Source: Candidatus Nomurabacteria bacterium (lineage in GTDB: Bacteria; Patescibacteriota; Minisyncoccia; Phycocordibacterales; UBA9973). From it: a DNA stretch of 64,000 nucleotides. Below the pieces are notes generated by a model. It made no database searches. It was not told the DNA's origin and worked only from the letters and a program-made list of their open reading frames with translations. The translations under genes and the position numbers were made by a program. Positions 9,107 through 32,569 of this stretch are shown piece by piece. Each line of letters starts with the position of its first letter. Positions within the stretch are counted from its first letter, which is position 1. The DNA lies in assembly GCA_026395955.1 (NCBI GenBank), contig JAPLXR010000007.1, forward strand, positions 65,957 through 129,956, written 5' to 3'.

Positions 9107-9652
9107 ATGAAAAAAAATATAAAAAATTATTTTAAATATGTAACCGGATTTATTTTTTGTTTTTTGCTTCGTTTAATTCCATTTCGTCCTCCAAACGTAG
9201 AACCAATCCTAGCTACAGCTATGCCGTTTTCAAAAGAATACGGAAAGCTAGCAGGATTTTTTTTCGGCTTCTTCAGTATTATCCTTTATGATGTCGCTAC
9301 AGCTAGAGTCGGAATGTGGACATTGATTACAGGAGTCGCTTATGGAGTTTTAGGACTAGTCGCAGCAGTTTATTTTGAAAATAAAAATAATACTTCATGG
9401 AATTATGCGAAATTCGCAATTCTGGCCACTATCTTCTATGACGCTGTGACAGGTTTGACTGTCGGTCCGATATTTTTTCACCAAAGTTTCATGACAGCAT
9501 TAGCAGGACAGATACCTTTCACTCTTCTACATCTAGTAAGTAATGTCGGTTTTGCAATTGTATTCTCTCCACTCATATATAGATACGTAATTGAAAATAA
9601 AAAGTTTGAACTATCATTATCAAAATTAATTTTAAATCCAAAACAAATATGA
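9107..9652 (+). CDS. small polytopic membrane protein, possibly a vitamin/cobalamin uptake component
   Basis: 181 aa with 5-6 predicted TM segments. Its stop overlaps the nrdJ start by 4 nt. The functional call rests on context only. Confidence 0.3.
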   Translation: MKKNIKNYFKYVTGFIFCFLLRLIPFRPPNVEPILATAMPFSKEYGKLAGFFFGFFSIILYDVATARVGMWTLITGVAYGVLGLVAAVYFENKNNTSWNYAKFAILATIFYDAVTGLTVGPIFFHQSFMTALAGQIPFTLLHLVSNVGFAIVFSPLIYRYVIENKKFELSLSKLILNPKQI

Positions 9653-11934
9653 AAAACAATATAGCTAATTCAAAAAAATATTCACCGCTTCAAAAAATTC
9701 AAAAGAGAGATAGTTCAATAGTTCCATTTGATGCAAAACACATCACTCGTGCTATTTTCCGTGCAATGCAAAATGTAAAAGAAGGGGATGAACAACATGC
9801 AGAAAAAGTGATGGTTAAAGTTTTGGATAAACTTCTATTAGTTCAAAAAGAAAATAAAATTAAAAACTTTGTTCCGACAGTTGAAATGATCCAAGACGTC
9901 GTCGAGAATGAATTGATTAACTCTACATTTTTAAATACAGCAAAAGCATATATTCTCTATAGACAAGAACGCTCACTCGTTCGTGAAAAAGTCGGTACTG
10001 TTCCAGAAAAGATTCGTGAGCTTTTTGCAGAAAGTAAAAAATATTTCCGTAACTCTCTAGCTGAACTCGTATACTATCGTACGTATGCAAAATGGATTCC
10101 TGAACAAGATCGTCGTGAGACATGGATAGAGACCGTCGATAGATATTTAGATTTTATGCGTGACAATGTTAACGGTAGTTTGTCTGACGCTGAATACAAA
10201 GAAGTCCGCGAAACAATGCTAAAGCAAGAAGCCTTACCATCTATGCGTTTATTACAATTCGCAGGCAAAGCAGCTCGCCGTACAAATGTCTGTGCTTATA
10301 ACTGTTCATTTATTGCTCCTAGAACTTTCCAAGACTTTGCTGAGATAATGTACATCTCTATGTGTGGTACTGGTGTCGGATGGTCTGTAGAAAGTGAAAA
10401 TATTCAAGCCTTACCACAAATCCAAAGACAAACAGGAAAGAAAGCAACTACATATGTAATACCTGATAGTAAAGAAGGTTGGGCAGATGCTTTTTCTCTC
10501 GGAATGAAAACATGGTTCGAAGGTGGAGATATTAATTTTGATTATTCTCTTATTCGTCCTGCAGGAGCACGTTTGAAAACTATGGGAGGAAAAAGTTCTG
10601 GTCCTGCACCACTTCGTGATTTGATAGACTTCACACGTGAAAGAGTTTTACGTAGACAAGGACGCCATCTCTCAAACATGGATGCACACGATATCATTTG
10701 TAAGATCGGTGAATGTGTCGTCGCTGGTGGAGTTCGTCGTAGTGCGATGATTTCACTTTCTGATTTGGATGATGAAAATATTCGTGACTCAAAGAAAGGA
10801 CAATTTTATTTAACAGAAGGACAAAGAATGCTCGCAAACAATTCTGCTGTTTATCAAACAAAACCAACTTCAACAGAATTCCTAGATGAATGGATAGCTT
10901 TGATGAAATCTGGATCAGGAGAAAGAGGAATATTTAATCGTGGAGGACTCGCAAATACTTTACCAAAGAGAAGACTCGATCAATTCAAGGGTGGTATCTA
11001 CCCAGCATGGGGAACAAATCCTTGTGGAGAAATTATTCTTCAATCAAAACAATTCTGTAACCTTTCAGAAGTTGTCGCTCGTGCAGATGATACAGAAGAA
11101 AGTTTACTTAGAAAAATTCGTGTTGCGACAATACTCGGTACTTACCAATCAACACTTACATACTTCCCATATCTTTCAAAAGAATGGAAGAAGAATTGTG
11201 AGAAGGAGAGATTGCTCGGTGTTTCAATAACAGGACAATGGGATTGTGCACTCGTACGTGATCCGAAAATGTTAGAGAAATTAAAAAATGAAGCAATAAA
11301 AATAAATAAAAAGTATGCAGAGAAATTTGGTGTTAACCAATCAACATGTGTGACTTGTGTTAAACCATCAGGAAATACTTCACAAACCGTAGACTGTTCT
11401 TCTGGAATGCATACTCGCCACGCTCCATACTATATCCGTCGTGTTCGTATTTCTACTACAGATGCTCTTTTCAAAATGTTACGTGACCAAGGAGTACCTC
11501 ATTTCCCAGAAGTCGGACAAACTATCGAAGACGCTACTACATACGTCCTAGAATTCCCTATAAAGGCTCCAGACGGTGCTATCTGTAAAGATGATGTTGA
11601 TGCTATCGCTCAGCTTGAACACTGGAAAGTTGTGAAGAATCACTATACTGAACACAATCCTTCTGTAACTATTTCTGTTGGAGAAGATGAATGGCTCAAA
11701 GTCGCTCATTGGATTTATGAGAACTGGGAAATCGTCGGAGGACTTTCATTCCTTCCTCGTTCAAACCATGTATATCAACTCGCTCCATATGAAGCTATTA
11801 CAAAAGAGAAATATGAAGAAATGAAAGAAAGACTTGGTGAAATTGATTTCTCAAAGATCGTAACTTATGAAAGAGAAGATGAAACAGAAGTAAAGAAAGA
11901 ACTCGCTTGCGTAGGAGGACTTTGCGAAATATAA
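9649..11934 (+). CDS. nrdJ: class II (adenosylcobalamin-dependent) ribonucleotide reductase with N-terminal ATP-cone
   Basis: 761 aa. ATP-cone-like N-terminus (IQKRDSSIVPFDAKHITRAIFRAM) and the hallmark class II active-site motif TNPCGEI. Confidence 0.85.
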   Translation: MKNNIANSKKYSPLQKIQKRDSSIVPFDAKHITRAIFRAMQNVKEGDEQHAEKVMVKVLDKLLLVQKENKIKNFVPTVEMIQDVVENELINSTFLNTAKAYILYRQERSLVREKVGTVPEKIRELFAESKKYFRNSLAELVYYRTYAKWIPEQDRRETWIETVDRYLDFMRDNVNGSLSDAEYKEVRETMLKQEALPSMRLLQFAGKAARRTNVCAYNCSFIAPRTFQDFAEIMYISMCGTGVGWSVESENIQALPQIQRQTGKKATTYVIPDSKEGWADAFSLGMKTWFEGGDINFDYSLIRPAGARLKTMGGKSSGPAPLRDLIDFTRERVLRRQGRHLSNMDAHDIICKIGECVVAGGVRRSAMISLSDLDDENIRDSKKGQFYLTEGQRMLANNSAVYQTKPTSTEFLDEWIALMKSGSGERGIFNRGGLANTLPKRRLDQFKGGIYPAWGTNPCGEIILQSKQFCNLSEVVARADDTEESLLRKIRVATILGTYQSTLTYFPYLSKEWKKNCEKERLLGVSITGQWDCALVRDPKMLEKLKNEAIKINKKYAEKFGVNQSTCVTCVKPSGNTSQTVDCSSGMHTRHAPYYIRRVRISTTDALFKMLRDQGVPHFPEVGQTIEDATTYVLEFPIKAPDGAICKDDVDAIAQLEHWKVVKNHYTEHNPSVTISVGEDEWLKVAHWIYENWEIVGGLSFLPRSNHVYQLAPYEAITKEKYEEMKERLGEIDFSKIVTYEREDETEVKKELACVGGLCEI

Positions 11935-11941: not shown

Positions 11942-12559
11942 ATGCTATACACTAGAAAAGGAGACAATGGAACAACAAAAACTTTTGGATGCGATCAACG
12001 TATATCAAAAAGTAGTGCGATAGCCGAAGCTCTCGGTTCTATGGATGAAATAAATTCTTTTCTGGGTTTGGTAAAAGTAAAAGCCGCCATTTTAAAGGTG
12101 GCTTTTACTTTGCCTGCCTACGCAGGCAGGCCGGATCAAGAAATAAAACTAGCAGAGACTGTCGACAGAATTCAACAAGACCTTTTTATAATTCAGGCAG
12201 AACTCGCAGGTGCAGATAAAACAATTGTAGAAGAAAAAGTAAAATGGCTCGAAGAAATAATCGACGGCATTGAAAAAATGCTTCCACCGATTAAAACTTT
12301 TTTTGTGTCTGGTGGTACCGAACTCGCATCTCTTTGCGACATCGCTCGCACTATCGCTCGCCGTGCAGAACGCCGAGTAGTCGGCGTCGCAGAAGAGCAG
12401 AAATCTTTTGCAGAGATTTCTGCTCCTGAATCTGCACCCATAAAAACTCTAAGCGCCCAAACCCTCGCATACCTAAACCGTTTAAGTAGTGTCCTCTACG
12501 CCTTCGCCCGCGCCTCAAACCACGTCGCTGGTATTACCGAAGAAGCTCCGAGGTACTAA
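11942..12559 (+). CDS. PduO-type ATP:cob(I)alamin adenosyltransferase
   Basis: N-terminal YTRKGDNGTTKTFGCDQRISKSSAIAEALGSMDEINSFLG and the later DLFIIQAELAG match the PduO/MMAB family. The CDS contains an internal 18-nt perfect palindrome (12113-12130). Confidence 0.8.
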   Translation: MLYTRKGDNGTTKTFGCDQRISKSSAIAEALGSMDEINSFLGLVKVKAAILKVAFTLPAYAGRPDQEIKLAETVDRIQQDLFIIQAELAGADKTIVEEKVKWLEEIIDGIEKMLPPIKTFFVSGGTELASLCDIARTIARRAERRVVGVAEEQKSFAEISAPESAPIKTLSAQTLAYLNRLSSVLYAFARASNHVAGITEEAPRY

Positions 12560-12638
12560 TAAAACAGTTATGTAAGGGGAGTCCTTACACAACTGGAAAA
12601 TAAAGAAAGAACACCGCCAAAAAAAGGGGAATAAAAAT

Positions 12639-12668
12639 AGCATAATCAAAAATATTTTTGATTATGCT
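12639..12668. terminator. bidirectional terminator palindrome between convergent genes
   Basis: Perfect inverted repeat agcataatcaaaaa/tttttgattatgct. Confidence 0.6.
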
Positions 12669-12682
12669 ATTTAAGTTCTTGT

Positions 12683-12967
12683 TTAATAACTTCTTGCATA
12701 AAGATATACAACTTTACCACAGTATGGGCAAATATTGTTTTCTTCTAATTTTCCATTCATGTTCATAACATTACATTCTGGACAATTCCATGTATTGAAA
12801 CCTCTCATTGTTATTTTGTTTGCATTTTTAACCTCAGATACTTTGAGGTTTTTGTGTGAATTGCGGTATTTGTCGCAATCCTTTGTTTTCTCGTTTGTTT
12901 GTAGGCATTTAAACCAACCACGATTTAAAGGTTTAAATTTTAATAGCACCCTTATTGTTGTATTCAT
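12683..12967 (-). CDS. small zinc-ribbon protein (hypothetical)
   Basis: 94 aa with a CPEC...CPYC four-Cys pattern. Confidence 0.35.
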   Translation of the reverse strand: MNTTIRVLLKFKPLNRGWFKCLQTNEKTKDCDKYRNSHKNLKVSEVKNANKITMRGFNTWNCPECNVMNMNGKLEENNICPYCGKVVYLYARSY

Positions 12968-13094
12968 TTTTTATAGTTTTTAAAATTCAGTTGTCTTTTC
13001 TTAAAAGTATCATTCTGAACTAAACATGTCAAATGATATAAATTTGCATAAAATGATGTGGGTAGTATACTGGTAATGTGCTTAACAAATTAAT

Positions 13095-13262
13095 AGTTTT
13101 GTAATTGGGGAAGTGAGGTGAGAATCCTCCACAGTGCCGCTACGGTAATCTAAATTTAATTTAGAAAGTCCGAATGCCAATTATGAATTTTGATACCCGA
13201 GCAGGAATTCCATATTTCATTTTTGAAACATGGTACGGTAACTCCTCTCTGTGGGAGTTTTT
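13095..13262 (+). promoter_or_regulatory. cobalamin (AdoCbl) riboswitch with terminator/SD-sequestering expression platform
   Basis: Core GGGGAAGTGAGGTGAGAATCCTCCACAGTGCCGCTACGGTAAT matches the conserved cobalamin riboswitch core (AGGGAAG..GGTGAGAATCC..C.GCC..GCTAC.GT.A). Hairpin actcc-tctctgt-gggagt plus T-run lies immediately before the start codon at 13266. Confidence 0.7.
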
Positions 13263-13265
13263 TTA

Positions 13266-13769
13266 ATGAAAAATTTAAATAAAAAATATATAATCATTCT
13301 TTTAATTATTGCTTTATTGGCCTTAAGATTTTTTATTGTTTATTTTAAACACCAAGACAAAATTACTGAAGTACAAAATATTGAAATTCCAAAAGTTATA
13401 GAGAAATCTACTCCAGAAATTCTAAAACAAATTCCTGTTACAAAAAATATTCCCAAAAATGAAACAATACCTTTAAATACAAATATTGTAACTATAAAGG
13501 TAGGGGATACAAATATAAATTTACCAATACAAAGTAATGCTAGTCTTTATGATGTTTTACTTGCAGGGCAAAAATCAGGACAGATAAATTTTACAGGAAA
13601 GAATTATTCAGGAATGGGATTTTTTATTAGTAGTATTGGGAATTTGAAAGAAGGATATGGGAAGTATTTAATTTATTATGTTAATGGCACAGAAGCGTCT
13701 GTCGGGATTTCTTCTTATGTACCAAAAGTAGGAGATATTATCGAGTGGAAACTTAGTACATCATTATAA
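13266..13769 (+). CDS. DUF4430-like (transcobalamin beta-domain-like) membrane-anchored protein
   Basis: N-terminal TM anchor. C-terminal domain with LYDVLLAG...GMGFFISSIGNLKEG...YLIYYVNGTEASVGISSYVPKVGDIIEWKL, which resembles DUF4430 proteins that accompany B12 transporters. The ORF-track start (13251, GTG) was replaced by the ATG at 13266. Confidence 0.5.
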   Translation: MKNLNKKYIIILLIIALLALRFFIVYFKHQDKITEVQNIEIPKVIEKSTPEILKQIPVTKNIPKNETIPLNTNIVTIKVGDTNINLPIQSNASLYDVLLAGQKSGQINFTGKNYSGMGFFISSIGNLKEGYGKYLIYYVNGTEASVGISSYVPKVGDIIEWKLSTSL

Positions 13770-13772: not shown

Positions 13773-15740
13773 ATGAAAACAAAATTTTTAATATTTATTT
13801 TTGCAATAGTTTTATTTACGCCAGTATTTTTTGCTCGAGCAGATGTTTTACCTTTACCAGATGCATCTACTACTCCAGATATTATTCCACCACCAGATGC
13901 TTCTTCTACACCTATTCTCACTGAAAATATTTTAATACGTAACGGAGATACTGTTATTTTTCAAGGGTCAGTAGATTTACCAACAGCAGGGAATATCGAC
14001 ATTATGGATAATGCTAGTACTACGCACTCAGTAAATACTGACAGTGTTCTCGGTGTTTTATATTCTTTAGATCAAAATAATGATTCTTTTTCAATTTCAA
14101 ATCTACAATATTATGATTCTTTTGGAGCATTTTATTTAAAATGCATTACGAGCGTTAGTGAATCTTGTGATAATTGGCAATACGTCGTCGGAGGTACAAC
14201 ACCTTGGCAAAGTATCGATCAAACTATTTTGACTGGTGGAGAAAGTATCGGTATTTATTTTGGTACACCGTATAAAGTAGTTTTAAATAGTAATAACATT
14301 CATACGACCGATACTTTAAATGTTACCGCTGAAAAATATGATTATGAAAATAATGTTTGGAATCCGAGAACTGGTGTAACTGTTGGTCTAACTCAACCTG
14401 ATCCAAACAACCCTTGGAGTCCGATAGAAGTGCAAACTATTCCTGTTGATGCTAGTGGTGTCGCAACTTTTACAAATATTGGAGCTGGGAATTATAATGT
14501 CGGAATTCAAGAAGATTATTATTTTCCGACAGAATCTTTGACTGTATCTGCTCCTTTTGTTGATTGTGGTTGTGGTGGAGGAAATCCCGCTCCTGTTTTT
14601 AGCATTCCAAATGCAATTTCATATTTAGAAAGTGTTCAAAGTTCTGACGGATCTTTTGGAGACAGTGATATGTATACAGATTGGGCTAGTATTGCATTAT
14701 CAGCAAATGGAATTTCAAATAATATTAAAAATAAAATTTTAAGTTATATGTCAGCAGATAATTCTGTATCTGATAATCTTACAGACAATGAACGTCGTGC
14801 AATGGCGCTTCTTGCTTTAAATAAAAATCCATATGATTTTGGCAATGTAGATTATATTACTCCAATTATAAATTCTTTTGATGGAACACAATTCGGTGAT
14901 ACTAATTTAATCAATGATGATATTTTTGCACTTATTCCGCTTGCAAATACTGGCTATGATAATAGTGACGATATTATCAAAAAAGATATAGCTTATGTAA
15001 TTTCAAAACAAAAAATAAATGGTTCATGGGAAGAAAGTGTTGATATGACTTCTGCTAGTATTCTAGCCCTTGAAAATTATTCTAGTGTGTCTGGTGTAAA
15101 TTCTGCAATCTCTCTAGCAGAAAATTATTTAGAGAGTTCTCAGAAAAATGATGGTGGATGGGGAAATGTTTCAGCGACGAGCTGGGTATTACAAGCTGAA
15201 TCAATTTTAGGTACTAATTGGAGTAATAATGGAAAAACAGGAATTGATTATTTAGCAGATAATCAAGATACTGATGGTGGTGCGATAAAAAATACAGAAA
15301 TTTTACAAAATAGAATCTGGGCGACGAGTTATGCAATTCCAGGAGCACTAAACGAAACTTGGAATCAGATTTTTCATTCATTTCCAAAACCTACTAATCC
15401 TACAAATTTAACACAAACTTGTGAGACAGATCCTTCTTTGTGTACACCACCGATACAACCGACTTGTGAAACAAATATAACTCTTTGTCCTCCAAAATCA
15501 GTTCTTGCAGAAGAAAAACTAACTATAGTTCCAGTAGAAAATATTACACCTAAAGTAGTGTCTGTTAAAAAGGTTGAAAAAAAAATTGAACCAAAAATTC
15601 TTACCAAAGAAATATCAAAAATAGAACCTATAAATATCACTGCTACAGCAGGGAATAGTGATAGTAAAATATCCATGATTGTGTCTATTTTTTCTCTATT
15701 GGGCTTAATAGGACTAATGATATTTCGTTTTGTTATTTAG
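13773..15740 (+). CDS. secreted/surface protein with alpha/alpha-toroid QW (prenyltransferase/terpene-cyclase-like) repeats and C-terminal TM anchor
   Basis: Signal peptide, Pro/Thr-rich linkers, at least six repeats carrying Q..DG(S/G)(W/F)G-type motifs (e.g. SQKNDGGWGN, SSDGSFGD, INGSWEE), a Cys-rich C-terminal segment and a terminal hydrophobic anchor. Confidence 0.5.
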   Translation: MKTKFLIFIFAIVLFTPVFFARADVLPLPDASTTPDIIPPPDASSTPILTENILIRNGDTVIFQGSVDLPTAGNIDIMDNASTTHSVNTDSVLGVLYSLDQNNDSFSISNLQYYDSFGAFYLKCITSVSESCDNWQYVVGGTTPWQSIDQTILTGGESIGIYFGTPYKVVLNSNNIHTTDTLNVTAEKYDYENNVWNPRTGVTVGLTQPDPNNPWSPIEVQTIPVDASGVATFTNIGAGNYNVGIQEDYYFPTESLTVSAPFVDCGCGGGNPAPVFSIPNAISYLESVQSSDGSFGDSDMYTDWASIALSANGISNNIKNKILSYMSADNSVSDNLTDNERRAMALLALNKNPYDFGNVDYITPIINSFDGTQFGDTNLINDDIFALIPLANTGYDNSDDIIKKDIAYVISKQKINGSWEESVDMTSASILALENYSSVSGVNSAISLAENYLESSQKNDGGWGNVSATSWVLQAESILGTNWSNNGKTGIDYLADNQDTDGGAIKNTEILQNRIWATSYAIPGALNETWNQIFHSFPKPTNPTNLTQTCETDPSLCTPPIQPTCETNITLCPPKSVLAEEKLTIVPVENITPKVVSVKKVEKKIEPKILTKEISKIEPINITATAGNSDSKISMIVSIFSLLGLIGLMIFRFVI

Positions 15741-15767
15741 GCTAAACTAAATGCTATAATTAAAAAT

Positions 15768-18395
15768 ATGAATTGGCATAAACATATTTTTAGAAAGAGT
15801 AAAGAAGCAGATCATACAGATTTATCAAAAAATGAACTTTTTGATAAATTGCGTATTTTTGCAAAAAATGAACCAGAATATTCTTTAAAAGAATTATCTT
15901 CTAGTAACATAGGTTTAAATGATCATGAGGCAAAAAATAGAATAAAGAAATACGGTTTAAATGACTTAGCAAATGATAAAAAAGAAGGTCCTTTGTTAAA
16001 ACTCTTTAATATTATTAAAAGCCCGATTAATTTATTGTTAATTGCTCTTTCTGTTATTTCTTTATTTGTCGGTGATATAAAGTCTTTTGTAGTTATTATT
16101 TTAATGGTTACTTTGAGTGCGTCTTTGAGTTTCTATCAAGAAACAAAATCTGCTATCGCTGTAGATAAACTAAAATCAATTATTCATACAAAAAGTACTG
16201 TAATTAGAAATAATAAAAAAATAGAAATTCTTTCAAAATATGTCGTACCAGGTGACATTGTATGTCTTTATTCCGGGACAATTATACCAGGAGATATAAG
16301 GCTTATAACTTCTAAAGATTTATTTATAAACCAAGCCATGCTGACAGGTGAATCTTTACCTGCAGAAAAACACGTCACTGATTCTAGTTTGAGCGAAAAA
16401 AATATTATTGAATTTTGTAACTTATGTTTTCTCGGTACTAGTGTCGAGAGTGGAGTAGCAACAGCAGTAGTATTGAGTACTGGTAGAAATACATATATCG
16501 GTAGTATTGCTTCTGATATTAATTCAGGAAATCATGTTTCAGATTTTACGAAAGAATTAAAGGGTTTTGTTTTTTTAACTTTGAAATTTATGGTTTTTAT
16601 GGTGCCGGCCGTTTTTCTTTTAAATGGAATTTTTAAAGGAAATTGGTTTGAAGCATTTTTATTTGCATTAGCTGTGGCTGTCGGTATGGCACCGGAAATG
16701 ATTTCTACAATCGTTGCTATGAATCTATATAAAGGTGCTCTTGCAATGGCAAAGAAAAAAGTTATAGTAAAACATTTAGATGCTATTGAAAATCTGGGAG
16801 TTATGGACGTGCTTTGTACTGACAAGACAGGCACTCTCACTGAAGGACGAGTGGTCTTAGAAAAGTATTTAGATATTTACGGAAAAGAAAATAATGATAT
16901 TTTGCATTATGGATTTCTGAATAGTTTTTTTCAGACAGGTGTGTCATCTATTATAGATGAAGCTGTTTTAAAACATGAAGAAGTAAAACAAAAATCGGAA
17001 ATAGAAAATTATAAAAAAATTGATGAAATACCTTTTGATTTTAGTCGACGTCGACTATCTGTGATCGTGTCTGATACTAGAACAAATAAACAAATATTGG
17101 TTTGTAAGGGTGCAGTAGAAGAAATTGTTAGTAAAAGTGTGAATGTTTTGGTTGATGGAAAAGTTCAAACATTATCTGGTATTACAGACAGTGTAAAATT
17201 TGAAATGGAAGAAGAACTTAATAAACAAGGTTTTCGTGTTGTGGCTGTCGGTTATAAAGAAGTTGATAGTGATAAAAAAGTTTTCTCTGTTGATGATGAG
17301 AGTGATTTAATCCTCGTAGGATTTTTAGCTTTTTTTGATCCACCAAAAGCTAGTGTAAAACAAACAATACAAGATTTGAAAGAACTCGGTGTAGATATAA
17401 AAATCTTAACAGGGGACAACGATATAGTAACGAGAAAAATTTGTATAGATGTAGGAATGCAAGTCGATAAAATACTTTTAGGTAAAGACATCGAAAAATT
17501 TACAGAAGAAGAATTAGACAAAGAAATACAAGGTGTGTCTGTTTTTGCAAAACTTTCTCCATATGACAAGGAAAGAATAATAAAGAATTTGAGGAATAAA
17601 GGCCACGTCGTTGGATTCCTAGGTGATGGGATAAATGATTCGCTTTCTTTGATTGCGGCAGACATAGGAATTTCTGTTGATACTGCAGCTGATATTGCAA
17701 AAGAATCTTCAGATATTATTTTGCTCGAAAAGAACTTAAATGTTTTGAAAGACGGAATAAAAGAGGGAAGAAGGATTTTTGAAAATATTATTAAATATAT
17801 AAAAATGGCTGCGAGTTCAAATTTCGGGAATATGTTTAGTGTTGTTGGAGCTAGTATTTTTCTACCATTTTTGCCGATGTTACCAATACAAATATTGGCC
17901 AACAATATGCTTTATGATTTTTCTCAGACGACGATACCGACAGATAATGTAGACGAAGACAGACTACTTCAACCAAAGAAATGGGATTTTAAAAATATAA
18001 AAAGATTTATTATTTTCTTTGGCCCGATAAGTTCTTTGTTTGATTATGCTACATTTTTTGTTTTGCTTTATGTTTTCCATGCTTGGAACAATCCTGCTCT
18101 TTTCCATACCGGATGGTTTGTCGAGTCACTATTAACTCAGACTTTAATCGTACATATTATTCGTACTAGTAAAATTCCATTCTTACAAAGTCGCGCCAGT
18201 ACACCTTTGATAATTTCTACTTTCTCTGTGATTGTCTTTGGAATATGGCTCGTAGCTTCACCTTTTGCTAGTGCCTTTCAGTTTATGGCCTTGCCGTTAC
18301 TCTATTATGGTTTTTTATTTGTAGGAGTAATTTTATATTTTATTTTGACTCAACTTATGAAAATGTATTTTATAAAAAAATACAACTGGATTTAA
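15768..18395 (+). CDS. P-type ATPase, MgtA-like Mg2+ importer family
   Basis: 875 aa with the DKTGTLT phosphorylation motif, a GDGINDS hinge, about 10 TM segments, and an N-terminal region similar to the MgtA/MgtB cation-ATPase N-terminus. Confidence 0.75.
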   Translation: MNWHKHIFRKSKEADHTDLSKNELFDKLRIFAKNEPEYSLKELSSSNIGLNDHEAKNRIKKYGLNDLANDKKEGPLLKLFNIIKSPINLLLIALSVISLFVGDIKSFVVIILMVTLSASLSFYQETKSAIAVDKLKSIIHTKSTVIRNNKKIEILSKYVVPGDIVCLYSGTIIPGDIRLITSKDLFINQAMLTGESLPAEKHVTDSSLSEKNIIEFCNLCFLGTSVESGVATAVVLSTGRNTYIGSIASDINSGNHVSDFTKELKGFVFLTLKFMVFMVPAVFLLNGIFKGNWFEAFLFALAVAVGMAPEMISTIVAMNLYKGALAMAKKKVIVKHLDAIENLGVMDVLCTDKTGTLTEGRVVLEKYLDIYGKENNDILHYGFLNSFFQTGVSSIIDEAVLKHEEVKQKSEIENYKKIDEIPFDFSRRRLSVIVSDTRTNKQILVCKGAVEEIVSKSVNVLVDGKVQTLSGITDSVKFEMEEELNKQGFRVVAVGYKEVDSDKKVFSVDDESDLILVGFLAFFDPPKASVKQTIQDLKELGVDIKILTGDNDIVTRKICIDVGMQVDKILLGKDIEKFTEEELDKEIQGVSVFAKLSPYDKERIIKNLRNKGHVVGFLGDGINDSLSLIAADIGISVDTAADIAKESSDIILLEKNLNVLKDGIKEGRRIFENIIKYIKMAASSNFGNMFSVVGASIFLPFLPMLPIQILANNMLYDFSQTTIPTDNVDEDRLLQPKKWDFKNIKRFIIFFGPISSLFDYATFFVLLYVFHAWNNPALFHTGWFVESLLTQTLIVHIIRTSKIPFLQSRASTPLIISTFSVIVFGIWLVASPFASAFQFMALPLLYYGFLFVGVILYFILTQLMKMYFIKKYNWI

Positions 18396-18443
18396 TTTTA
18401 TTAAAAACTTTAATTTTTCTATTAAATATGTTATAAAGATATT

Positions 18444-18465
18444 ACCGCTTTAATAGCGGTTTTAT
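18444..18465 (+). terminator. rho-independent terminator after P-type ATPase
   Basis: Hairpin accgctttaatagcggt followed by a T-run. Confidence 0.65.
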
Positions 18466-18487
18466 TCTGAATAATGAATAAAAACAT

Positions 18488-18560
18488 GGTGCCCATGGTG
18501 TAATGGTTAACACTAGAGTTTGTGGAACTCTCAATTCGGGTTCAACTCCCGATGGGCACC
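18488..18560 (+). tRNA. tRNA-His (anticodon GTG) with genomically encoded G-1
   Basis: G(-1)+GTGCCCA...anticodon loop TTGTGGA...TTCAACT...TGGGCAC+C. The G-1 pairs with discriminator C, as in bacterial tRNA-His. Confidence 0.8.
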
Positions 18561-18562
18561 CA

Positions 18563-19288
18563 ATGACTGCAATTTTATTATCAATAGCAACATTTATATC
18601 TACTTCTCTCGGAGGTTTGTTTTCTATTAAATATAAAGATAGATTACATTTGATAATGGGCTTCACTGCTGGGGTTTTGCTTGGTGTTGTTTCTTTTGAT
18701 ATTTTTCCAGAGATTATAGAACAAATTAAAATACATAATTTTGATTCTGTTTATCCGATGATTGCACTTGTCGCTGGTTTTTTACTTTTTCATATTTTAG
18801 AAAAATCTATGATGATTCATCATTCACACGAAGATGAATATGCTGACCATAAACATCCACACGTAGGAAAATTTTCTGCATTAGCCTTAGCAGGGCATAG
18901 TTTTATGGATGGGGTAGGTATAGGTCTCGGTTTTCAAGTTAATACTGCTGTCGGTATTGCTGTCGCATTGGCTGTTATAGCTCATGATTTTACTGACGGA
19001 ATGAACACTGTAACTCTCATGCTGACAAGTAAAAATACTGTTAAAAATGCAAAATGGTTTTTATTGCTCGATGCTGTTACTCCTACCCTCGGAGTCCTTT
19101 CGACTTTTCTATTTAAAGTATCAGATAATTTTCTAGTTTTATATCTCGGTTTCTTTGCTGGATTTTTGCTCTATATAGGTGCGAGTGATATTTTACCTGA
19201 AGCGCATAGTAAACATAGCTCTATGAAGACCGTAGCCCTCACTATTTTCGGAGCACTTTTAGTCTTTATTTTAACTCGCTTTATATAG
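18563..19288 (+). CDS. ZIP-family (ZupT-like) zinc/divalent metal transporter
   Basis: His-rich loop (HHSHEDEYADHKHPH) and conserved AHDFTDG / HSFMDGVGIG motifs. Start moved to M21 (18563) because the tracked ORF start overlaps tRNA-His. Confidence 0.7.
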   Translation: MTAILLSIATFISTSLGGLFSIKYKDRLHLIMGFTAGVLLGVVSFDIFPEIIEQIKIHNFDSVYPMIALVAGFLLFHILEKSMMIHHSHEDEYADHKHPHVGKFSALALAGHSFMDGVGIGLGFQVNTAVGIAVALAVIAHDFTDGMNTVTLMLTSKNTVKNAKWFLLLDAVTPTLGVLSTFLFKVSDNFLVLYLGFFAGFLLYIGASDILPEAHSKHSSMKTVALTIFGALLVFILTRFI

Positions 19289-19299
19289 TCTTCTCTATA

Positions 19300-19324
19300 A
19301 AAGCCTTATTTTATAAGGTTTTTA
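19300..19324 (+). terminator. rho-independent terminator after ZIP transporter
   Basis: Hairpin ccttattttataagg followed by a T-run. Confidence 0.6.
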
Positions 19325-19453
19325 TCTATTGACTTTTACATATAAATATGATATACTTGTATTATAGAAGGTTATTTGAAAAAAAGTTTTTAGGAGTTGC
19401 CAGATATTCTAATTATTTATTGGAATTTGTGATAACTCTTAAAAACAAAACAA

Positions 19454-20083
19454 ATGAAAAAAATCAGTTTACTTTTAGTCGTATTCGCTGTAATAAGCTG
19501 GAGTACAAAAATGAATGCACAAACTTCCTGGCATTTTACAGGATTTTCAATTAACACTGATACAACTTTTGTGAACAGTGGTGGATGGTTTATGGATGCA
19601 GATTCTCTAAAATTTATTGATCACTCGTATTGTACGAATGGCCAGATAGTTTTATGGAGATGGAAGTTTCAGGGTGCTGATAATAATGACACCTTAGCTC
19701 AATACACCTCGTATGTTCATGACATAACTAGGAAATGGAGTAATCCAGGATATTATAGAGTTGAGTTAGGAACACTCGATAGTTTCGGACAATGGAATAT
19801 CCTAAACGTAGGTGTTCATATTGCTTTTTCAATTGCTACTGGTATCAGTGAAAATTCTGAAGTTGCATTTTCACTTTATCCAAATCCTGCAAATGAAAAT
19901 ATTACAATTGATTTACCTTTAAATGGTAGAGAAAGTAATGTTGAAATTATAGACGTCACAGGTAGGCTAATTCTTTCATTAAAAGTTTCCGGTAAACAAA
20001 ATATAGATGTGTCGTCTTTTAAAGACGGTGTCTATTTTTTGAAAAATGGAAATACAACAAAGAAATTTATTGTTGCTCATTAA
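19454..20083 (+). CDS. secreted protein with type IX secretion system C-terminal sorting domain (Por_Secre_tail-like)
   Basis: Signal peptide MKKISLLLVVFAVISWSTKMNAQ. The C-terminal ~75 aa (SLYPNPANENITIDL...VEIIDVTGRLILSLKV...DVSSFKDGVYFLKNGNTTKKFIV) matches the T9SS CTD signature. Confidence 0.55.
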   Translation: MKKISLLLVVFAVISWSTKMNAQTSWHFTGFSINTDTTFVNSGGWFMDADSLKFIDHSYCTNGQIVLWRWKFQGADNNDTLAQYTSYVHDITRKWSNPGYYRVELGTLDSFGQWNILNVGVHIAFSIATGISENSEVAFSLYPNPANENITIDLPLNGRESNVEIIDVTGRLILSLKVSGKQNIDVSSFKDGVYFLKNGNTTKKFIVAH

Positions 20084-20162
20084 ATAGAGTAATACTAAAT
20101 AAAAGTCCTTGCAGAAATGTAAGGGCTTTTTTTATTGGTAAATTTTATGCGATAATAGAGGG

Positions 20163-21440
20163 ATGAGAAAAGAGATAGAGAAAAATATAAAACAATATTG
20201 GAAAAGCTTGGGTCCAGGACTCACGACAGGGGCCGCTGATGATGATCCATCTGGTATTGCGACTTATTCTCAAACAGGTGCGAAATACGGTTTCGGCTTT
20301 ACTTGGCTTGCTCTTTTTACTATTCCATTGATGTCTGTAGTACAAGAAATGTGTGCACGTATCGGTATGGTCACAGGTCAGGGTCTCGCTGCTAATATAA
20401 AAAAACATTATTCAAAAAAAGTTTTGTATTTTTGTACCGCACTTTTGCTTTTTGCTAATACTTTTAACATCGGGGCTGATCTAGGTGCTATGTCTCAGGG
20501 GACACAGCTGATTTTTCCTCATTTAAATTTTGCATTACTTGTTGTATTGTTCGCAATTTTATCTTTAGTTTTTCAGATTTTTATTCCATATAAAACTTAT
20601 GCGAAATATTTAAAGTATTTAACATTTGTTTTATTGGCTTATATTTTTTCTGCTTTGATGGTAGATATGGATTGGTATGAAGTTTTACGTCACACTTTTG
20701 TACCTAGTATGTCTTTTTCAAAAGACAGTATCATTTTACTTTCTGCTATTTTAGGAACAACTATTTCTCCTTATTTGTTTTTCTGGCAAACTTCTCAAGA
20801 AGTAGAAGAGCATATTCTCTCTGGAGAGGTAGACGAATTACAAAAAGATGAAAATGAAATAAATTCTGATATTAAAAAAATGCGCATCGATGTTTGGAGT
20901 GGAATGTTTTTTTCAAACCTCGTTATGTTTTTCATAATCATTGCTTGTGCCTCGACTTTATTCAAAGAAGGAATTACAAATATCGGTACAGCAGCTGATG
21001 CAGCGAAAGCCCTTGAACCTTTTGCAGGACATTTTGCTTCGTTGCTTTTTGCTATTGGAATTATCGGTACTGGATTTTTAGCTATCCCTGTTCTGGCTGG
21101 TGCGAATTCATATGCAGTATCTGAATGTTTTAATTGGAAAGAGGGACTTTATAGAAAATGGAATGAAGCAATAGCTTTTTATGGAGTTATTGTTGTAGCT
21201 GTTGGTTTAGGTATTCTTTTGAATTTTATTGGCCTTGATCCTATCAAAGCACTTATTTATTCAGCTGTTTTAAATGGCTTAGTTGCACCAGTAATTCTTT
21301 TCTTGATTGTACGACTTTCTTCTAACGAAGAAATAATGGGTAAATTTAAAAGTCGCCCTATTACAAAGATAGTAGGGTGGATAGCTGTTTCCTTGATGGC
21401 TATTGTTGGTGTGGCTACTATTATATCTCTCTGGCTTTGA
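20163..21440 (+). CDS. mntH: NRAMP-family divalent metal (Mn2+/Fe2+) transporter
   Basis: 425 aa. N-terminal GPGLTTGAADDDPSGIATYSQTGAKYGF is the NRAMP signature. About 11 TM segments. Confidence 0.8.
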   Translation: MRKEIEKNIKQYWKSLGPGLTTGAADDDPSGIATYSQTGAKYGFGFTWLALFTIPLMSVVQEMCARIGMVTGQGLAANIKKHYSKKVLYFCTALLLFANTFNIGADLGAMSQGTQLIFPHLNFALLVVLFAILSLVFQIFIPYKTYAKYLKYLTFVLLAYIFSALMVDMDWYEVLRHTFVPSMSFSKDSIILLSAILGTTISPYLFFWQTSQEVEEHILSGEVDELQKDENEINSDIKKMRIDVWSGMFFSNLVMFFIIIACASTLFKEGITNIGTAADAAKALEPFAGHFASLLFAIGIIGTGFLAIPVLAGANSYAVSECFNWKEGLYRKWNEAIAFYGVIVVAVGLGILLNFIGLDPIKALIYSAVLNGLVAPVILFLIVRLSSNEEIMGKFKSRPITKIVGWIAVSLMAIVGVATIISLWL

Positions 21441-24822: not shown

Positions 24823-25338
24823 TTGTATACTTTGCATATGTCAGACACAGATAAACTATCGCATAAAAGACCATCTTGGGACGAATACTTTTTAGAAATA
24901 ATGGACACAGTAGCCAAGAGAGCTAGCTGTGATAGGGGACGCTCTGGTTGTGTAATTGTCAAAGATAATAGAATCCTCGCTACTGGTTATGTCGGTGCTC
25001 CGGCTGGAGTAAAAAGCTGTGATGATGCAGGGCATGAAATGCATACAGTGATACATGCTGATGGTACACAATCACAGCATTGTATTCGTACAGCTCATGC
25101 TGAACAGAATGCTATCGTGCATGCTGCTCGTACTGGTGTAGCACTTTTAGGTGGAACATTGTACTGCAATATGACTCCTTGTTATGCTTGTGCGAAAATG
25201 ATTATTAATTCTGGAATTGTCAGAGTCGTTGCAAAGAAAGATTATCATGCAGGAGAAAGATCAAAAGAAATTTTCAAAGAAGCTGGAGTTAAATATGAAC
25301 TTATAAATAACGAAGTCGAAACATATACTAATCAATAA
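24823..25338 (+). CDS. dCMP deaminase (cytidine/deoxycytidylate deaminase family, ComEB-like)
   Basis: Zinc-binding HAEQNA and PCYACA motifs. N-terminal SWDEYFLEIMDTVAKRASC is typical of dCMP deaminases. Confidence 0.75.
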   Translation: MYTLHMSDTDKLSHKRPSWDEYFLEIMDTVAKRASCDRGRSGCVIVKDNRILATGYVGAPAGVKSCDDAGHEMHTVIHADGTQSQHCIRTAHAEQNAIVHAARTGVALLGGTLYCNMTPCYACAKMIINSGIVRVVAKKDYHAGERSKEIFKEAGVKYELINNEVETYTNQ

Positions 25339-25347
25339 ATAAATTTT

Positions 25348-25680
25348 ATGTCTGTTGATCTAAAAGAATTACAAAAAGAGGTGATGAGGAACAAGATTGA
25401 AAAAGGTTTCAACACTACTGATGTAGCATTGGAATTTTGTCGAGCTCACGAAGAACTCTCAGAAGCTTTTTCAAAGTTTAATAAAAATCAAGACGGCGTA
25501 GCAGAAGAATTCGCTGATGTTGCTGTATTTCTCCTCGGTATGTGTGAGATACTTGGTTTTGATTTGGAAAAAGAATTGGTTCGTAAAATTGAAATAAATA
25601 AAAATCGTAAATATAAAAAAGCTAAATCTCCAGACGGTAAAGATATTTTCATAAGAGAGAAAACAGACATAGATCCATAA
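25348..25680 (+). CDS. MazG-like nucleotide pyrophosphohydrolase domain protein
   Basis: 110 aa, all-alpha. EELSEAF....EEFADVAVFLLGMCEILGFDLE matches the MazG-type NTP-PPase core (E..E / E..D metal ligands). Confidence 0.55.
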   Translation: MSVDLKELQKEVMRNKIEKGFNTTDVALEFCRAHEELSEAFSKFNKNQDGVAEEFADVAVFLLGMCEILGFDLEKELVRKIEINKNRKYKKAKSPDGKDIFIREKTDIDP

Positions 25681-25686
25681 ATAATA

Positions 25687-25710
25687 AAAGGCCCCTTGTG
25701 GGGCCTTTTT
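25687..25710. terminator. bidirectional terminator between convergent genes
   Basis: Hairpin aaaggccccttgtggggccttttt. Confidence 0.7.
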
Positions 25711-25713
25711 AGA

Positions 25714-26211
25714 TTAAAATTTTTCGTATTCTACAAATGAATACGGTTTCTCATTCCTTTCGTCAGCATCGTATCGTTCACGATTTGTTTCTCCAAAAAC
25801 TATTGGAATAATTTCCGGGAAAAATGCATCAGCATCTTTGTCTATTGCTTCTACATGAGTGATATATAGCTTGTCAGCAATTTTCATCGCTTCTCTGTAT
25901 ATTTGTTCACCACCAGTAATAAAAGCTTCTGTTGCTGTTTCATCTTGTCTAACTAGAGCGAGAGCTTCTTCGAGTGAATGAACCACTTCGATGTCTGGAG
26001 CTGTATAGTCTGCATTACGAGTAATTACGATATTTCGTCTTTTTGGTAATGCTTTACCTAAAGATTCAAAAGTCTTGCGACCCATGATTATTGGATGCCC
26101 TGAAGTAGTTTCTTGGAAATGTTTCAGGTCGGTCTTTAAACGCCATAGCAATTTATTATTTTTGCCGAGTTCGTTATTTTCACCTATAACTGCAATGATA
26201 GATATTTTCAT
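25714..26211 (-). CDS. folA: dihydrofolate reductase
   Basis: ISIIAVIGENNELGKNNKLLWRLKTDLKHFQETTSGHPIIMGRKTFESLG is the DHFR signature. Confidence 0.8.
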   Translation of the reverse strand: MKISIIAVIGENNELGKNNKLLWRLKTDLKHFQETTSGHPIIMGRKTFESLGKALPKRRNIVITRNADYTAPDIEVVHSLEEALALVRQDETATEAFITGGEQIYREAMKIADKLYITHVEAIDKDADAFFPEIIPIVFGETNRERYDADERNEKPYSFVEYEKF

Positions 26212-26214
26212 AAT

Positions 26215-27168
26215 TTATACGGCTATTGGTGCTTTAATCATCGGATGAGGGTCATATCCAATAAGCTCAAAATCTTCAAAGACAAAATCTTCTATATTTT
26301 TTACTTCAGGATTTATTTTCATTGTCGGCATACTACGAATATCATTTTTACGTGAAATCTGAAGGTTCGCTTGTTCAAGGTGGTTTAAATATAAGTGTGT
26401 ATCTCCACCAGTCCAAATAAATTCTCCGAGTTCAAGTCCAGTGACTTGTGCCATCATCATAGTAAGCAATGCATACGAAGCAATGTTGTAGGGTACACCT
26501 AAAAAGGTGTCACAACTTCTTTGATATAACAGACAAGATAATTTATTGTCAGCTACATAAAACTGGAATATACAATGACATGGTGGAAGACCACTTACAG
26601 CCATTGCATCTAAGTCAGCAACATTCCATGCAGATACTATCATTCTTCGAGAATCAGGTTGTTTTTTTAATTGTTCAATGACAATTTTGATTTGATCGAT
26701 ATGTCCACCATTTGGTGTTGGCCAGTTCCTCCATTGGTAACCATAGATTGGTCCAAGGTCTCCATTTTCTTTTGCAAAAACTGGATCAGTTTTTATTTTT
26801 TCTACATATTCTTTCAATCCAGTTTTCCATTCATCACTTTCTGTCTTTGGTACAGGGATACCATTTTTCTTCAAATATGCTTTGTATGGCCATTCGTCCC
26901 AAATACCTACACCGTTATCAGCTAGATATTTTAAGTTTGTATCACCACGTAAGAACCAAATCAATTCATGAATGATTCCTTTCATGTGTACTTTTTTTGT
27001 TGTTAGGAGAGGGAAGCCATTTGCTAGATCGAATCGCATTTGATATCCGAAGACACTTTTTGTGCCTGTTCCTGTACGATCAGTTTTTGTCGCACCACTT
27101 TGTAAGATATGTTCCAATAATTTTAAATACTGGTTATCTACATGATTGTTGTTTTCCATATTTTCCAT
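26215..27168 (-). CDS. thyA: thymidylate synthase (ThyA, folate-dependent)
   Basis: [18 protein letters not shown], the [10 protein letters not shown] motif and the catalytic Cys region ([11 protein letters not shown]). 317 aa. Confidence 0.9.
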
Positions 27169-27364
27169 TGTACTATATTTATTATGTTAAGGTAATTATT
27201 TACTTTGAGTTTAGCATAATATAAATCTTTGTATATTTGACAAAATAAGCACAAAATGCTATTCTTTAATTATCAATCTCACTCTTAATTAACGAGACTG
27301 AAACCTGTGGAAATCAATTATGACTTTTGTGTCGTGCGATTGGTTACCATGACACAAAAATTAT

Positions 27365-28780: not shown

Positions 28781-28793
28781 AGAATTTTTAAAA

Positions 28794-28825
28794 ACACCCT
28801 ACTTTACAAAGTAGGGTGTTTTTGT
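28794..28825 (+). terminator. rho-independent terminator after helicase
   Basis: Hairpin acaccctactttacaaagtagggtgt followed by a T-run. Confidence 0.7.
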
Positions 28826-28866
28826 TATAATATATTCAGAAATAATTCTTTAAATATAAATTAATT

Positions 28867-29586
28867 ATGGTAGTAACAACTAAAAAAGTATCCACTGTTG
28901 TGGATGAATTCTATACAGAAATTGAAAACATGATGAAACGTACAAGTGAATTCTGTAAAGATGGTATCGGACATGTAACTGTCGATCAAGCTGTATTATT
29001 TAGTGAGAGATATGGTATATGTACTCATCCGCAGTATTACATACTTATTCTTGATTTGAGTTTTCATCTTGATAGAAAGTACCAACGCACTCATTATATT
29101 CTTAATGCAATTATTAATGATAAGGAGTTTCAAAAAGCGGGGATTTATTGGGCAAATGTATTGCGACATGTTGCGTACCGGTATCAAAAAGATTTAACTG
29201 ATAATTTTTTTGAACTACATCCGGTAATAAAGAAATCTCTAGAAATGCGTTTGACTGAAAGTGAAAACAAAAAAAAGTTATTATTTTTATCTATTGGTTG
29301 GATGTTGTGGATACAGCATGCGATACCTTCTACTAAAAGGATTGGAGGAAGCACTGGTCACAAATATTATAGTTACTGGGATCAAGCAGAATACTTCATT
29401 ACTTTTTTGCCGGTAATAAAGAGACATGTACAAATGTTTAAAGAAGCCTTGTTTGCTGATTTAGCAGAAGACACAATGGATTCTGAAGATTGGGAATATG
29501 CTGCAAAAAAAGCCTTCGCTGATTTGAGTGAATACAATGATTTAATGTTCGAACCACTAATTAAAGATATAAAAAAAAGAAAGTAA
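28867..29586 (+). CDS. hypothetical protein
   Basis: 239-aa ORF between two terminators. No recognisable motifs. Confidence 0.3.
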   Translation: MVVTTKKVSTVVDEFYTEIENMMKRTSEFCKDGIGHVTVDQAVLFSERYGICTHPQYYILILDLSFHLDRKYQRTHYILNAIINDKEFQKAGIYWANVLRHVAYRYQKDLTDNFFELHPVIKKSLEMRLTESENKKKLLFLSIGWMLWIQHAIPSTKRIGGSTGHKYYSYWDQAEYFITFLPVIKRHVQMFKEALFADLAEDTMDSEDWEYAAKKAFADLSEYNDLMFEPLIKDIKKRK

Positions 29587-29588
29587 TA

Positions 29589-29616
29589 AAAGCCCCAAAT
29601 GGGGCTTTTTTGTTTT
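29589..29616 (+). terminator. rho-independent terminator
   Basis: Hairpin aaagccccaaatggggcttt followed by a T-run. Confidence 0.7.
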
Positions 29617-29642
29617 ATAAAAATATAGGGTATACTTTAGTC

Positions 29643-30815: not shown

Positions 30816-30818
30816 TTT

Positions 30819-31688: not shown

Positions 31689-31697
31689 AAATATTTT

Positions 31698-32108: not shown

Positions 32109-32112
32109 ATTT

Positions 32113-32523: not shown

Positions 32524-32569
32524 TGTTATTATGGTATTTTAATAAAAACAATCTTTAAAATAAATAGTT

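Follow-up and report, generated by a model that had tools for sequence, protein, structure and literature searches.

Which signal governs two adjacent genes for predicted surface proteins in a Candidatus Nomurabacteria bacterium, and through what kind of element? The genes (13266-13769 and 13773-15740, plus strand) lie within 64,000 nucleotides (nt) of contiguous DNA, hereafter the window, and are preceded by a leader that looks like a cobalamin riboswitch. The 655-amino-acid (aa) product of the second gene is 100% identical to a protein from a Candidatus Nomurabacteria metagenome-assembled genome, and the same DNA occurs on Logan contig L083. Our comparison of this leader with those of related loci points to a functional class-II cobalamin OFF switch that is transcribed from a promoter of its own and governs an operon whose two genes encode transcobalamin-like surface proteins for B12 capture, a reading we consider likely overall, with firmer and weaker parts that are distinguished below. 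A search of the literature on cobalamin riboswitches in Patescibacteria found nothing.

The cobalamin aptamer and its conservation

When the whole window was scanned on both strands with Rfam models (cmscan), the sole cobalamin-clan match was to RF01689 (AdoCbl-II), at 13090-13187 on the plus strand. The match scores 45.4 bits, above the curated gathering score of 36.5, which places the element in the cobalamin riboswitch clan (Rfam CL00101); its E-value is 1e-07 for the 64 kb on both strands and 6.3e-10 when the scan is restricted to a 401-nt region. The two remaining models of the clan overlap the same site at E<=10 and rank below RF01689. An initial annotation of this DNA had proposed a cobalamin riboswitch here, and the proposal is borne out by the RF01689 score, by a covariance model of our own (115 bits, see below) and by covariation of the helices. 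That annotation had named RF00174 for the Rfam check; a clan match was indeed found, but the best model is RF01689, a short class II model, and RF00174 was rejected as the family of the window aptamer. The class I features of RF00174 are a P2 arm and a large P6 extension (P7-P11), whereas here P2 is absent and the P6 extension is a single 15-nt hairpin.

The conserved core GGGGAAGTGAGGTGAGAATCCTCCACAGTGCCGCTACGGTAAT occupies 13107-13149. Around it, P1/P3 forms one contiguous helix of 11 pairs (13098-13108 with 13177-13187; pair list checked on the sequence), followed by J3/4 (GGAAG), P4/L4 (13115-13129), P5 (13133-13134 with 13140-13141), which is capped by L5 (UGCCG, 13135-13139), and P6 (13143-13145 with 13170-13172). 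Relative to the RF01689 consensus the P6 loop has a 20-nt insertion, within which lies the P6-extension hairpin CUAAAU-UUA-AUUUAG (13150-13164), and a B12-box-like segment, AAGUCCGAAUGCCAA, spans 13166-13180. The conserved blocks (J3/4 GGGAA, the L4 T-loop and the B12-box) are visible both in the Rfam alignment and in a MAFFT alignment of the family and, together with the P3-P6 four-way junction, they agree with membership of the clan. Conserved P1-P6 helices had been expected from the start; the six helices that we modelled do covary, and the classic adenosylcobalamin (AdoCbl) layout applies only partly, the aptamer being a short class II one and not of the long RF00174 type.

For comparison, loci with genes for relatives of the two downstream proteins were gathered, two from genomes and 80 from metagenomes. 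Of 84 sources searched for the core motif, 72 have the aptamer ahead of this gene pair and on its strand; for 10 of the other 12, the sequence does not extend upstream. Control of the surface-protein pair, as initially suggested, is thereby supported at the level of sequence. Among the first 20 loci scanned, 15 carry an Rfam cobalamin-clan aptamer on the strand of the gene (nine RF01689, five RF00174 and one RF01482), as do both genome loci; relatives thus reach, at the corresponding position, the gathering score of RF01689, RF01482 or RF00174. Our own covariance model of the aptamer plus the P13 stem-loop that follows it (R1) makes exactly one hit in 59 of 61 loci, and in the window it scores the aptamer at 115 bits and finds no second copy.

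For the covariation analysis, a MAFFT alignment (A2) that was out of register beside indels was replaced by one made with R1, which is fitted to the given structure and so leans in its favour. Standard pairs fill 90.5% of the cells of this alignment, compared with 70.3% after column shuffles, a value that 0 of 500 shuffles reach. Changes on both sides are seen in 24 of 29 pairs, and each of the six modelled helices shows covariation. The score for covariation, 0.479, falls to 0.137 or less when partners are slid by 1-3 columns; G-C/C-G and A-U/U-A swaps are abundant in P1/P3, P4 and the P6 extension. Since the slid controls collapse and pair swaps are many, we regard the helices as secure despite the structure-fitted alignment. 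On these comparative grounds the window element is confirmed as a genuine cobalamin riboswitch and, judged by the same alignments, is a further member of a known family, conserved widely across the poorly studied Patescibacteria.

Relatives differ in their periphery. A hairpin of 25-35 nt is inserted in the L4 loop of L020, L037, L052, L055, L065 and L082, and an extra hairpin stands between P1 and P13 in L025, L054, L064, L068 and L078. Such elaborations on the same core account for the way in which the best Rfam model alternates among RF01689, RF01482 and RF00174. The gene pair also occurs without the riboswitch: L028 (1-2500) and L030 have neither the core motif nor an R1 hit. In L028 the gene for ribonucleotide reductase (RNR) ends directly at the start of the first gene of the pair, and the capture genes appear to be co-transcribed with it.

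A proposed kissing loop and the expression platform

A consensus scan places a promoter just ahead of the aptamer (plus strand; -35 TTTGCA at 13043-13048, a 17-nt spacer, -10 TATACT at 13066-13071), from which transcription would start near 13078. The window, L001, L003 and L004 all have the block TTTGCATAAAA...AGTATACTGG without change, whereas the sequence upstream of the block does not align. An invariant promoter island amid unalignable flanks argues that the riboswitch unit is transcribed on its own and not from the RNR and PduO genes that lie upstream in the window. Between the PduO gene and this promoter there is a 94-aa open reading frame (ORF; 12683-12967, minus strand) without a family match, yet called as a gene on L083, and three terminator-like hairpins on the plus strand lie in or beside it (12635-12672, 12830-12850 and 12860-12879). 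It is possible that this ORF is spurious and that the region does no more than end transcription of the operon upstream.

At its other end the leader closes with the hairpin AACTCC-TCTCTGT-GGGAGTT (13240-13259; stem 13240-13246 with 13253-13259) and a U-run to 13264. The Shine-Dalgarno sequence GGGAG (13253-13257) lies within the 3' arm, 8 nt ahead of the ATG at 13266-13268, a start codon supported by the gene call on the identical contig L083, which yields the same 167-aa product. Such a hairpin, with GGGAG directly before the ATG, was already part of the initial annotation, and both the sequence and a terminator scan agree with it; the platform described there was incomplete, missing the P13/L13-antiterminator segment (13196-13206) and a middle hairpin, CCAUAUUUC...GAAACAUGG (13210-13233, -7.2 kcal/mol), which is kept in relatives with varying sequence and length.

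The placement of GGGAG raises the possibility that control is purely translational, the terminal hairpin only sequestering the ribosome-binding site (RBS), as in env8 and Escherichia coli btuB, and the U-run being incidental in an AT-rich genome. The weakness of the stem for a terminator (-7.6 kcal/mol) would suit this view, as would the mostly translational mode of the class-II switches studied to date (PMC5028336). In 59 of 60 family leaders, however, the hairpin that ends the leader is followed directly by 4-8 U. Terminator-like sites in the region number 11 against 2.2 expected, about five times chance, so that intrinsic terminators appear to be in use, and in many relatives the start codon lies 10-40 nt past the U-run with the RBS outside the hairpin. 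We therefore consider purely translational control unlikely, and take the terminal hairpin as a probable terminator that would also bury the RBS.

Eight nt beyond P1, after the J1/13 linker UUUUGAUA (13188-13195, read from the sequence), stands CCCGAGCAGGA (13196-13206), a stem-loop with stem CC/GG and loop CGAGCA (13198-13203) that also supplies the 5' strand of the antiterminator. The env8 linker is 7 nt long, and linkers of 0-4 nt abolish env8 regulation (PMC5028336). The position of the stem-loop matches that of P13/L13 in characterised switches, and on this basis we read CCCGAGCAGGA as P13/L13. Every leader has this motif, in exactly this form in 66 of 72, and CGAGCA does not vary in any of the 45 aligned leaders. 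Pairing at the three stem positions holds in 60/60, 60/60 and 52/60 leaders, with switches from C-G to U-A, and divergent leaders show the compensatory variants CUUC-CGAGCA-GAAG and UUCUU-CGAGCA-AAGAA. Taken alone, the hairpin is weak (-1.4 kcal/mol).

A putative kissing loop would join L5 (UGCCG) to CGAGCA through five pairs and a bulge: U-A, G-C, C-G, bulged A, C-G and G-C. The published L5 consensus is UCCCG (PMC10327014), and at least one L13 nucleotide is always unpaired in the kissing loop (PMC5028336), which the candidate pairing fits. In the RF01482 consensus L5 is uCcCg and the loop is CGAGGc; a C-G pair there corresponds to G-C in the window family, a compensatory flip.

L5 might instead kiss the loop of the terminal hairpin, which would then itself be P13, as in env8, where the RBS sits in L13 (PMC5028336); CCCGAGCAGGA would then be only an antiterminator strand. 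Five relatives (L010, L022, L023, L005 and L077) do have CGGC or CGG, complementary to the GCCG of L5, in the terminal loop. Their CUCGG is nevertheless accounted for by pairing with the CCGAG of P13/L13, and in RF01482 the position of CCCGAGCAGGA is modelled as a hairpin with loop CGAGGc. The terminal loop of the window, UCUCUGU, has no complement to L5, and in the large AAUUCUGCUC-type subgroup the terminal loops are variable and CGG is absent. The terminal loop was rejected as L13, its CGGC being missing both from the window and from that subgroup. Moreover, the invariance of CCCGAGCAGGA while its partner changes is something that a bare antiterminator strand does not need, but a loop touching the invariant L5 does. 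We judge a kiss with the terminal loop to be improbable, and retain CCCGAGCAGGA as the partner of L5.

Complementarity to CCCGAGCAGGA is also found in the terminal hairpin, along its 5' arm and loop, and comes in two co-varying flavours, the ACUCCUCUCGG-type and the AAUUCUGCUC-type. The mean energy of this antiterminator duplex across the family leaders is -11.4 kcal/mol, whereas shuffled arms average -4.8; for 40 of 53 leaders, no more than 5 of 200 shuffles do as well. In the window, the platform reaches its minimum energy when folded as the antiterminator (13196-13201 and 13203-13206 with 13243-13249 and 13253-13255). The ON fold (-30.2 kcal/mol) and the OFF fold (-30.3) have practically the same energy, a bistability in which a ligand-stabilised contact could decide the outcome.

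We propose that the aptamer (13098-13187) would bind a cobalamin, and that the ligand would stabilise the kissing loop of L5 with the very weak P13 hairpin. While P13 is held, the downstream hairpin and its U-run would form, transcription would terminate and GGGAG would be buried. Without ligand P13 would melt, CCCGAG.AGGA would pair with UCCUCUC...GGG of the terminator, and the resulting antiterminator would allow the operon to be expressed. The comparison establishes what the aptamer is, that its helices covary, that it stays associated with the genes, that P13 is conserved and that antiterminator and terminator strands are complementary; the L5-L13 pairing, ligand dependence, termination and the sign of regulation are what we infer from sequence in this scheme. 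Repression of B12-capture proteins by B12 is the classic logic of cobalamin switches.

There is a precedent for the proposed coupling in the metE riboswitch of Priestia megaterium, in which mutagenesis has shown the 3' side of P13 to double as the antiterminator (PMC10327014). The logic is shared: the kissing loop lends stability to a weak P13 whose 3' side can otherwise act as antiterminator against the 5' arm of the terminator, which gives an OFF switch. Unlike the window element, the metE aptamer belongs to class I and has L5 UCCCG with a contiguous five-pair kissing loop, and its mechanism is backed by mutagenesis whereas ours comes from comparison alone.

Several observations weigh against the reading set out here. 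In the window the third stem position of P13 is an A.A mismatch or a bulged A, and L5 and L13 are both invariant across 59 leaders, which leaves the kissing loop without internal covariation. The terminator stem is short, with seven pairs. With the 5' arm of the terminator alone, the window antiterminator reaches -8.7 kcal/mol and is matched by 28 of 200 shuffles, below the family norm; it also uses the GGG of the Shine-Dalgarno sequence, so that the ON state may still partly occlude the RBS. The minimum-free-energy z-score of the entire leader is an unremarkable -0.91. Folding energy was accordingly dropped as evidence for the riboswitch, whose support rests on the covariance models and on covariation.

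Aptamer class and candidate ligand

Two architectures are distinguished among the short class II aptamers: Cbl-IIb, with a paired or mismatched J1/3 and a short P6 hairpin, binds AdoCbl, while Cbl-IIa, with a bulged J1/3 and a simple P6 loop, binds methylcobalamin (MeCbl) or hydroxocobalamin (HyCbl) (PMC7367189). The window aptamer has the Cbl-IIb arrangement, its J1/3 region being paired or mismatched and its P6 carrying a short hairpin extension; the bulged J1/3 and the simple loop capping P6 of Cbl-IIa are not seen. Changes on both sides in 10 of 11 P1/P3 pairs indicate that the stretch aligned by RF01689 as a J1/3 bulge is paired in the riboswitch family of the window, and the P6 hairpin extension (helix 5) covaries too. 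The RF01482 gathering score of 50 is exceeded by two relatives, L002 with 53.3 bits and L031 with 55.7. From this Cbl-IIb-like architecture and from the neighbouring genes for PduO and for an AdoCbl-dependent RNR, the ligand is probably AdoCbl, although this is the weakest of our inferences.

The best Rfam model itself argues against selectivity for AdoCbl, since RF01689 is the family of MeCbl- and HyCbl-selective switches, among them env8 (PMC7367189). The riboswitch could thus sense MeCbl or HyCbl, as a Cbl-IIa switch does, or be promiscuous; corrinoid riboswitches are often broadly responsive (PMC9600662). Against this stands the absence of the Cbl-IIa hallmarks, J1/3 being a covarying paired helix and P6 carrying, as the insertion relative to RF01689, a covarying hairpin extension. 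The most parsimonious kissing loop would have a single bulged A and no A.G pair, as opposed to the strictly conserved two purines plus A.G pair of Cbl-IIa; relatives pass the RF01482 score, and the genes beside the riboswitch make and use AdoCbl. We regard an MeCbl- or HyCbl-sensing or promiscuous switch as a serious but doubtful alternative, and AdoCbl as the better candidate.

The window element combines traits of both Rfam families. With RF01689 (Cbl-IIa; env8HyCbl, PDB 4FRN) it shares the compact P3-P6 four-way junction and the absence of the P2 arm, a J1/13 linker of similar length and an RBS in the final hairpin, and it would share the logic of an L5-L13 kissing loop. It differs in its paired, covarying J1/3 in place of a bulge, in the P6 hairpin extension, and in the proposed kissing loop, with one bulged A and five Watson-Crick pairs in place of the two strictly conserved unpaired purines and an A.G pair; P13 is, in addition, separate from the RBS hairpin, and an antiterminator/terminator pair has been added. 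With RF01482 (Cbl-IIb; the Enterococcus/Listeria eut type) it shares the paired or mismatched J1/3, the short P6 hairpin extension, a context of genes making or using AdoCbl, and a 3' hairpin whose loop, CGAGGc in RF01482, stands where CGAGCA does in the window. Here the differences are the compensatory change in L5 and L13 (UGCCG, CGAGCA) and the control of uptake proteins in cis, in contrast to the small RNA controlled in the eut system.

The regulated genes, their neighbourhood and B12 supply

The product of the first gene is 167 aa long; it carries a membrane anchor at its N-terminus and contains DUF4430 (PF14478, E 4e-12; 46.9 bits, cut-off 23.8), which corresponds to the SLBB-type beta-domain of transcobalamin. 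In transcobalamin/TCN proteins this beta-grasp (SLBB) domain is C-terminal (PMC4350170, PMC1796856), and the top PDB sequence matches of the 167-aa protein are, weakly, to transcobalamin residues 333-411 (E 0.22). The 655-aa product of the second gene has a signal peptide, a DUF4430-like N-domain, an Ig-like domain, an alpha/alpha toroid (PF13243, E 1.4e-09) and a C-terminal membrane anchor. Both translations have hydrophobic N-terminal segments, so that DUF4430 is found here together with sequences for secretion or anchoring.

An AlphaFold2 model of the 655-aa protein (pLDDT 79) has three confident domains: the beta-rich N-domain, the Ig-like domain and the toroid. When the toroid was searched with Foldseek, alpha2-macroglobulin/complement TED domains and terpene cyclases came first and transcobalamin ranked 40 and 47, so that transcobalamin is not separable from other toroid folds by fold. 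Sequence and profile searches of the PDB with the toroid family found squalene-hopene cyclases and not transcobalamin. Cobalamin_bind (PF01122) is recognised in 15 of 30 family members of the 655-aa protein and DUF4430 in 8 of 30; the window's own copy has no PF01122 match at E<=0.1. A BLASTP comparison of the stand-alone DUF4430 with the N-domain of the 655-aa protein was not significant (E 0.15). In P0054, a protein of like architecture, residues 89-163 match DUF4430 above the cut-off, and by this match we take the N-domain to be a second DUF4430.

Bacterial surface proteins that fuse a transcobalamin-like SLBB domain to a toroid, on either side and often with Ig domains, were predicted to bind extracellular B12 by Burroughs et al. 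in 2007 (PMC1796856). The window proteins share with these the combination of DUF4430/SLBB, toroid and Ig-like domains, the signal or anchor sequences and the predicted sandwiching of extracellular B12. They differ in being two genes, one for a stand-alone anchored DUF4430 and one for a DUF4430-Ig-toroid protein, in belonging to Patescibacteria, and in being anchored by transmembrane helices and not by LPXTG. A literature search on DUF4430 together with cobalamin yielded nothing beyond one paper on vertebrates and one on proteomics that was unrelated. The two regulated proteins are thus predicted, from their domains, to be transcobalamin-like surface B12 binders.

Upstream of the riboswitch, on the same strand, lie genes for a membrane protein resembling ECF-S (9107-9652, a weak match below the Pfam cut-off), the AdoCbl-dependent RNR (9649-11934) and the PduO-type adenosyltransferase (11942-12559; TIGR00636, 138.8 bits, cut-off 108.45). 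No cob or cbi genes turned up in a Pfam/NCBIfam survey of the 64-kb window. The window is therefore consistent with B12 salvage only, as had been suggested for the whole genome, a claim for which 64 kb is too little. The cassette is conserved: RNR, then PduO or ECF-S, then the riboswitch, DUF4430 and the toroid. A homolog of the ECF-S-like gene (52-61% identity) stands directly upstream of the riboswitch in 12 loci (L031, L039, L040, L042, L044-L048 and L061-L063, at about 900-1700), and PduO does so in 13 others. Neither Rfam nor R1 finds a second riboswitch in the window ahead of the ECF-S/NrdJ/PduO genes, and the ECF-S-like protein, a presumed membrane transporter, would lie outside riboswitch control.

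Farther downstream, a deoxynucleotide-metabolism cluster (24823-34070) encodes dCMP deaminase, a MazG-like protein, DHFR, ThyA, SHMT and dUTPase, and includes a thymidylate kinase fused to a nucleoside 2-deoxyribosyltransferase (32570-33574). This cluster fits an organism whose supply of deoxynucleotides depends on a B12-dependent RNR.

The gene that follows the pair, after a spacer of 27 nt, encodes an MgtA-type Mg2+ ATPase (15768-18395, plus strand; TIGR01524, 1045 bits against a cut-off of 611), and the initial annotation had considered that the riboswitch might govern it also. The short spacer and a terminator scan that found no terminator-like site between 15740 and 15768 make some read-through into the ATPase gene possible. 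The comparison of loci does not support such control: a same-strand ATPase lies downstream in only 2 of 83 loci, the identical contig L083 and L005, where it is distant (29% identity, about 900 nt away), and in the close relative L004 the toroid gene is followed by a tRNA gene with no ATPase between. The spacer also holds a candidate extended -10 box, TGCTATAAT (TGcTATAAT, 15752-15760), which ends 7 nt before the ATG of the ATPase; as TGnTATAAT occurs 8 times in the window against 5.5 expected, which is no enrichment, this promoter is only suggestive. The gene sits in a run of metal transporters (ZIP, Nramp), and we know of no link between Mg2+ import and B12. Riboswitch control of the ATPase by read-through is therefore unlikely and, as far as the loci compared can tell, the ATPase gene does not belong to the conserved regulon.

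The metal-transporter run (15768-21440, plus strand) comprises the ATPase, a tRNA (18489-18560), ZIP, a Por_Secre_tail protein and Nramp; the ZIP ORF start at 18503 overlaps the tRNA, and the true start is probably later. The ATPase gene has no obvious Shine-Dalgarno sequence and, with a -10 box 7 nt from the ATG, its mRNA could be leaderless or nearly so. Elsewhere on the plus strand, an IleRS-like class I aminoacyl-tRNA synthetase of 1160 aa (47607-51089) has a histidine-phosphatase domain (His_Phos_1, phosphoglycerate-mutase-like) inserted at residues 510-680 (E 9e-35), which is unusual. A second His_Phos_1 domain (residues 5-195, E 6e-30) is N-terminally fused to a pyruvate kinase barrel (298-452) in the product of 56317-57744, which may be a phosphoglycerate-mutase/pyruvate-kinase fusion; enolase (58533-59783) is encoded by the second gene downstream of it, after one for a TauE/SafE-family membrane protein (57784-58527). 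Arginyl-tRNA synthetase appears as two overlapping ORFs (34134-34934 and 34853-35839, plus strand), which could reflect a frameshift, an assembly error or a true split of the gene. An AlwI-type restriction-modification cluster (39820-44235, plus strand) encodes two D12-class N6-adenine methyltransferases, an RE_AlwI endonuclease and a HARE-HTH/PD-(D/E)XK protein. At 61153-63051 a large serine recombinase (CcrB/XisF-like, minus strand) adjoins a fragment of a type I restriction-modification specificity subunit and may mark the edge of a mobile element.

For riboswitch biology the element holds little that is new in principle, being a standard OFF switch on B12-acquisition genes that Rfam can detect. 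Its 59 diverse leaders, with invariant L5 and L13 and two co-varying terminator types, nevertheless form a natural data set for the coupling of P13, antiterminator and terminator in class-II switches. At about 190 nt, the compact native ligand-responsive element could also serve as a repressible expression tool; a 2024 perspective names riboswitches as promising for an inducible expression system still to be developed for Patescibacteria (PMC11665869). More broadly, and with less than even confidence, we suggest that a Patescibacteria-wide, Cbl-IIb-like lineage with frozen L5 and L13 (UGCCG, CGAGCA) may sense AdoCbl and gate a dedicated two-protein surface trap that would be the main B12 route for the AdoCbl-dependent RNR of these cells with their minimal biosynthesis, and that it may also offer the first native small-molecule-responsive genetic tool for the group. 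The riboswitch provides independent regulatory evidence that the DUF4430 and toroid surface proteins predicted in 2007 handle B12, and the conserved cassette, present in many Patescibacteria, ties the DNA-precursor synthesis of these reduced cells to scavenged B12.

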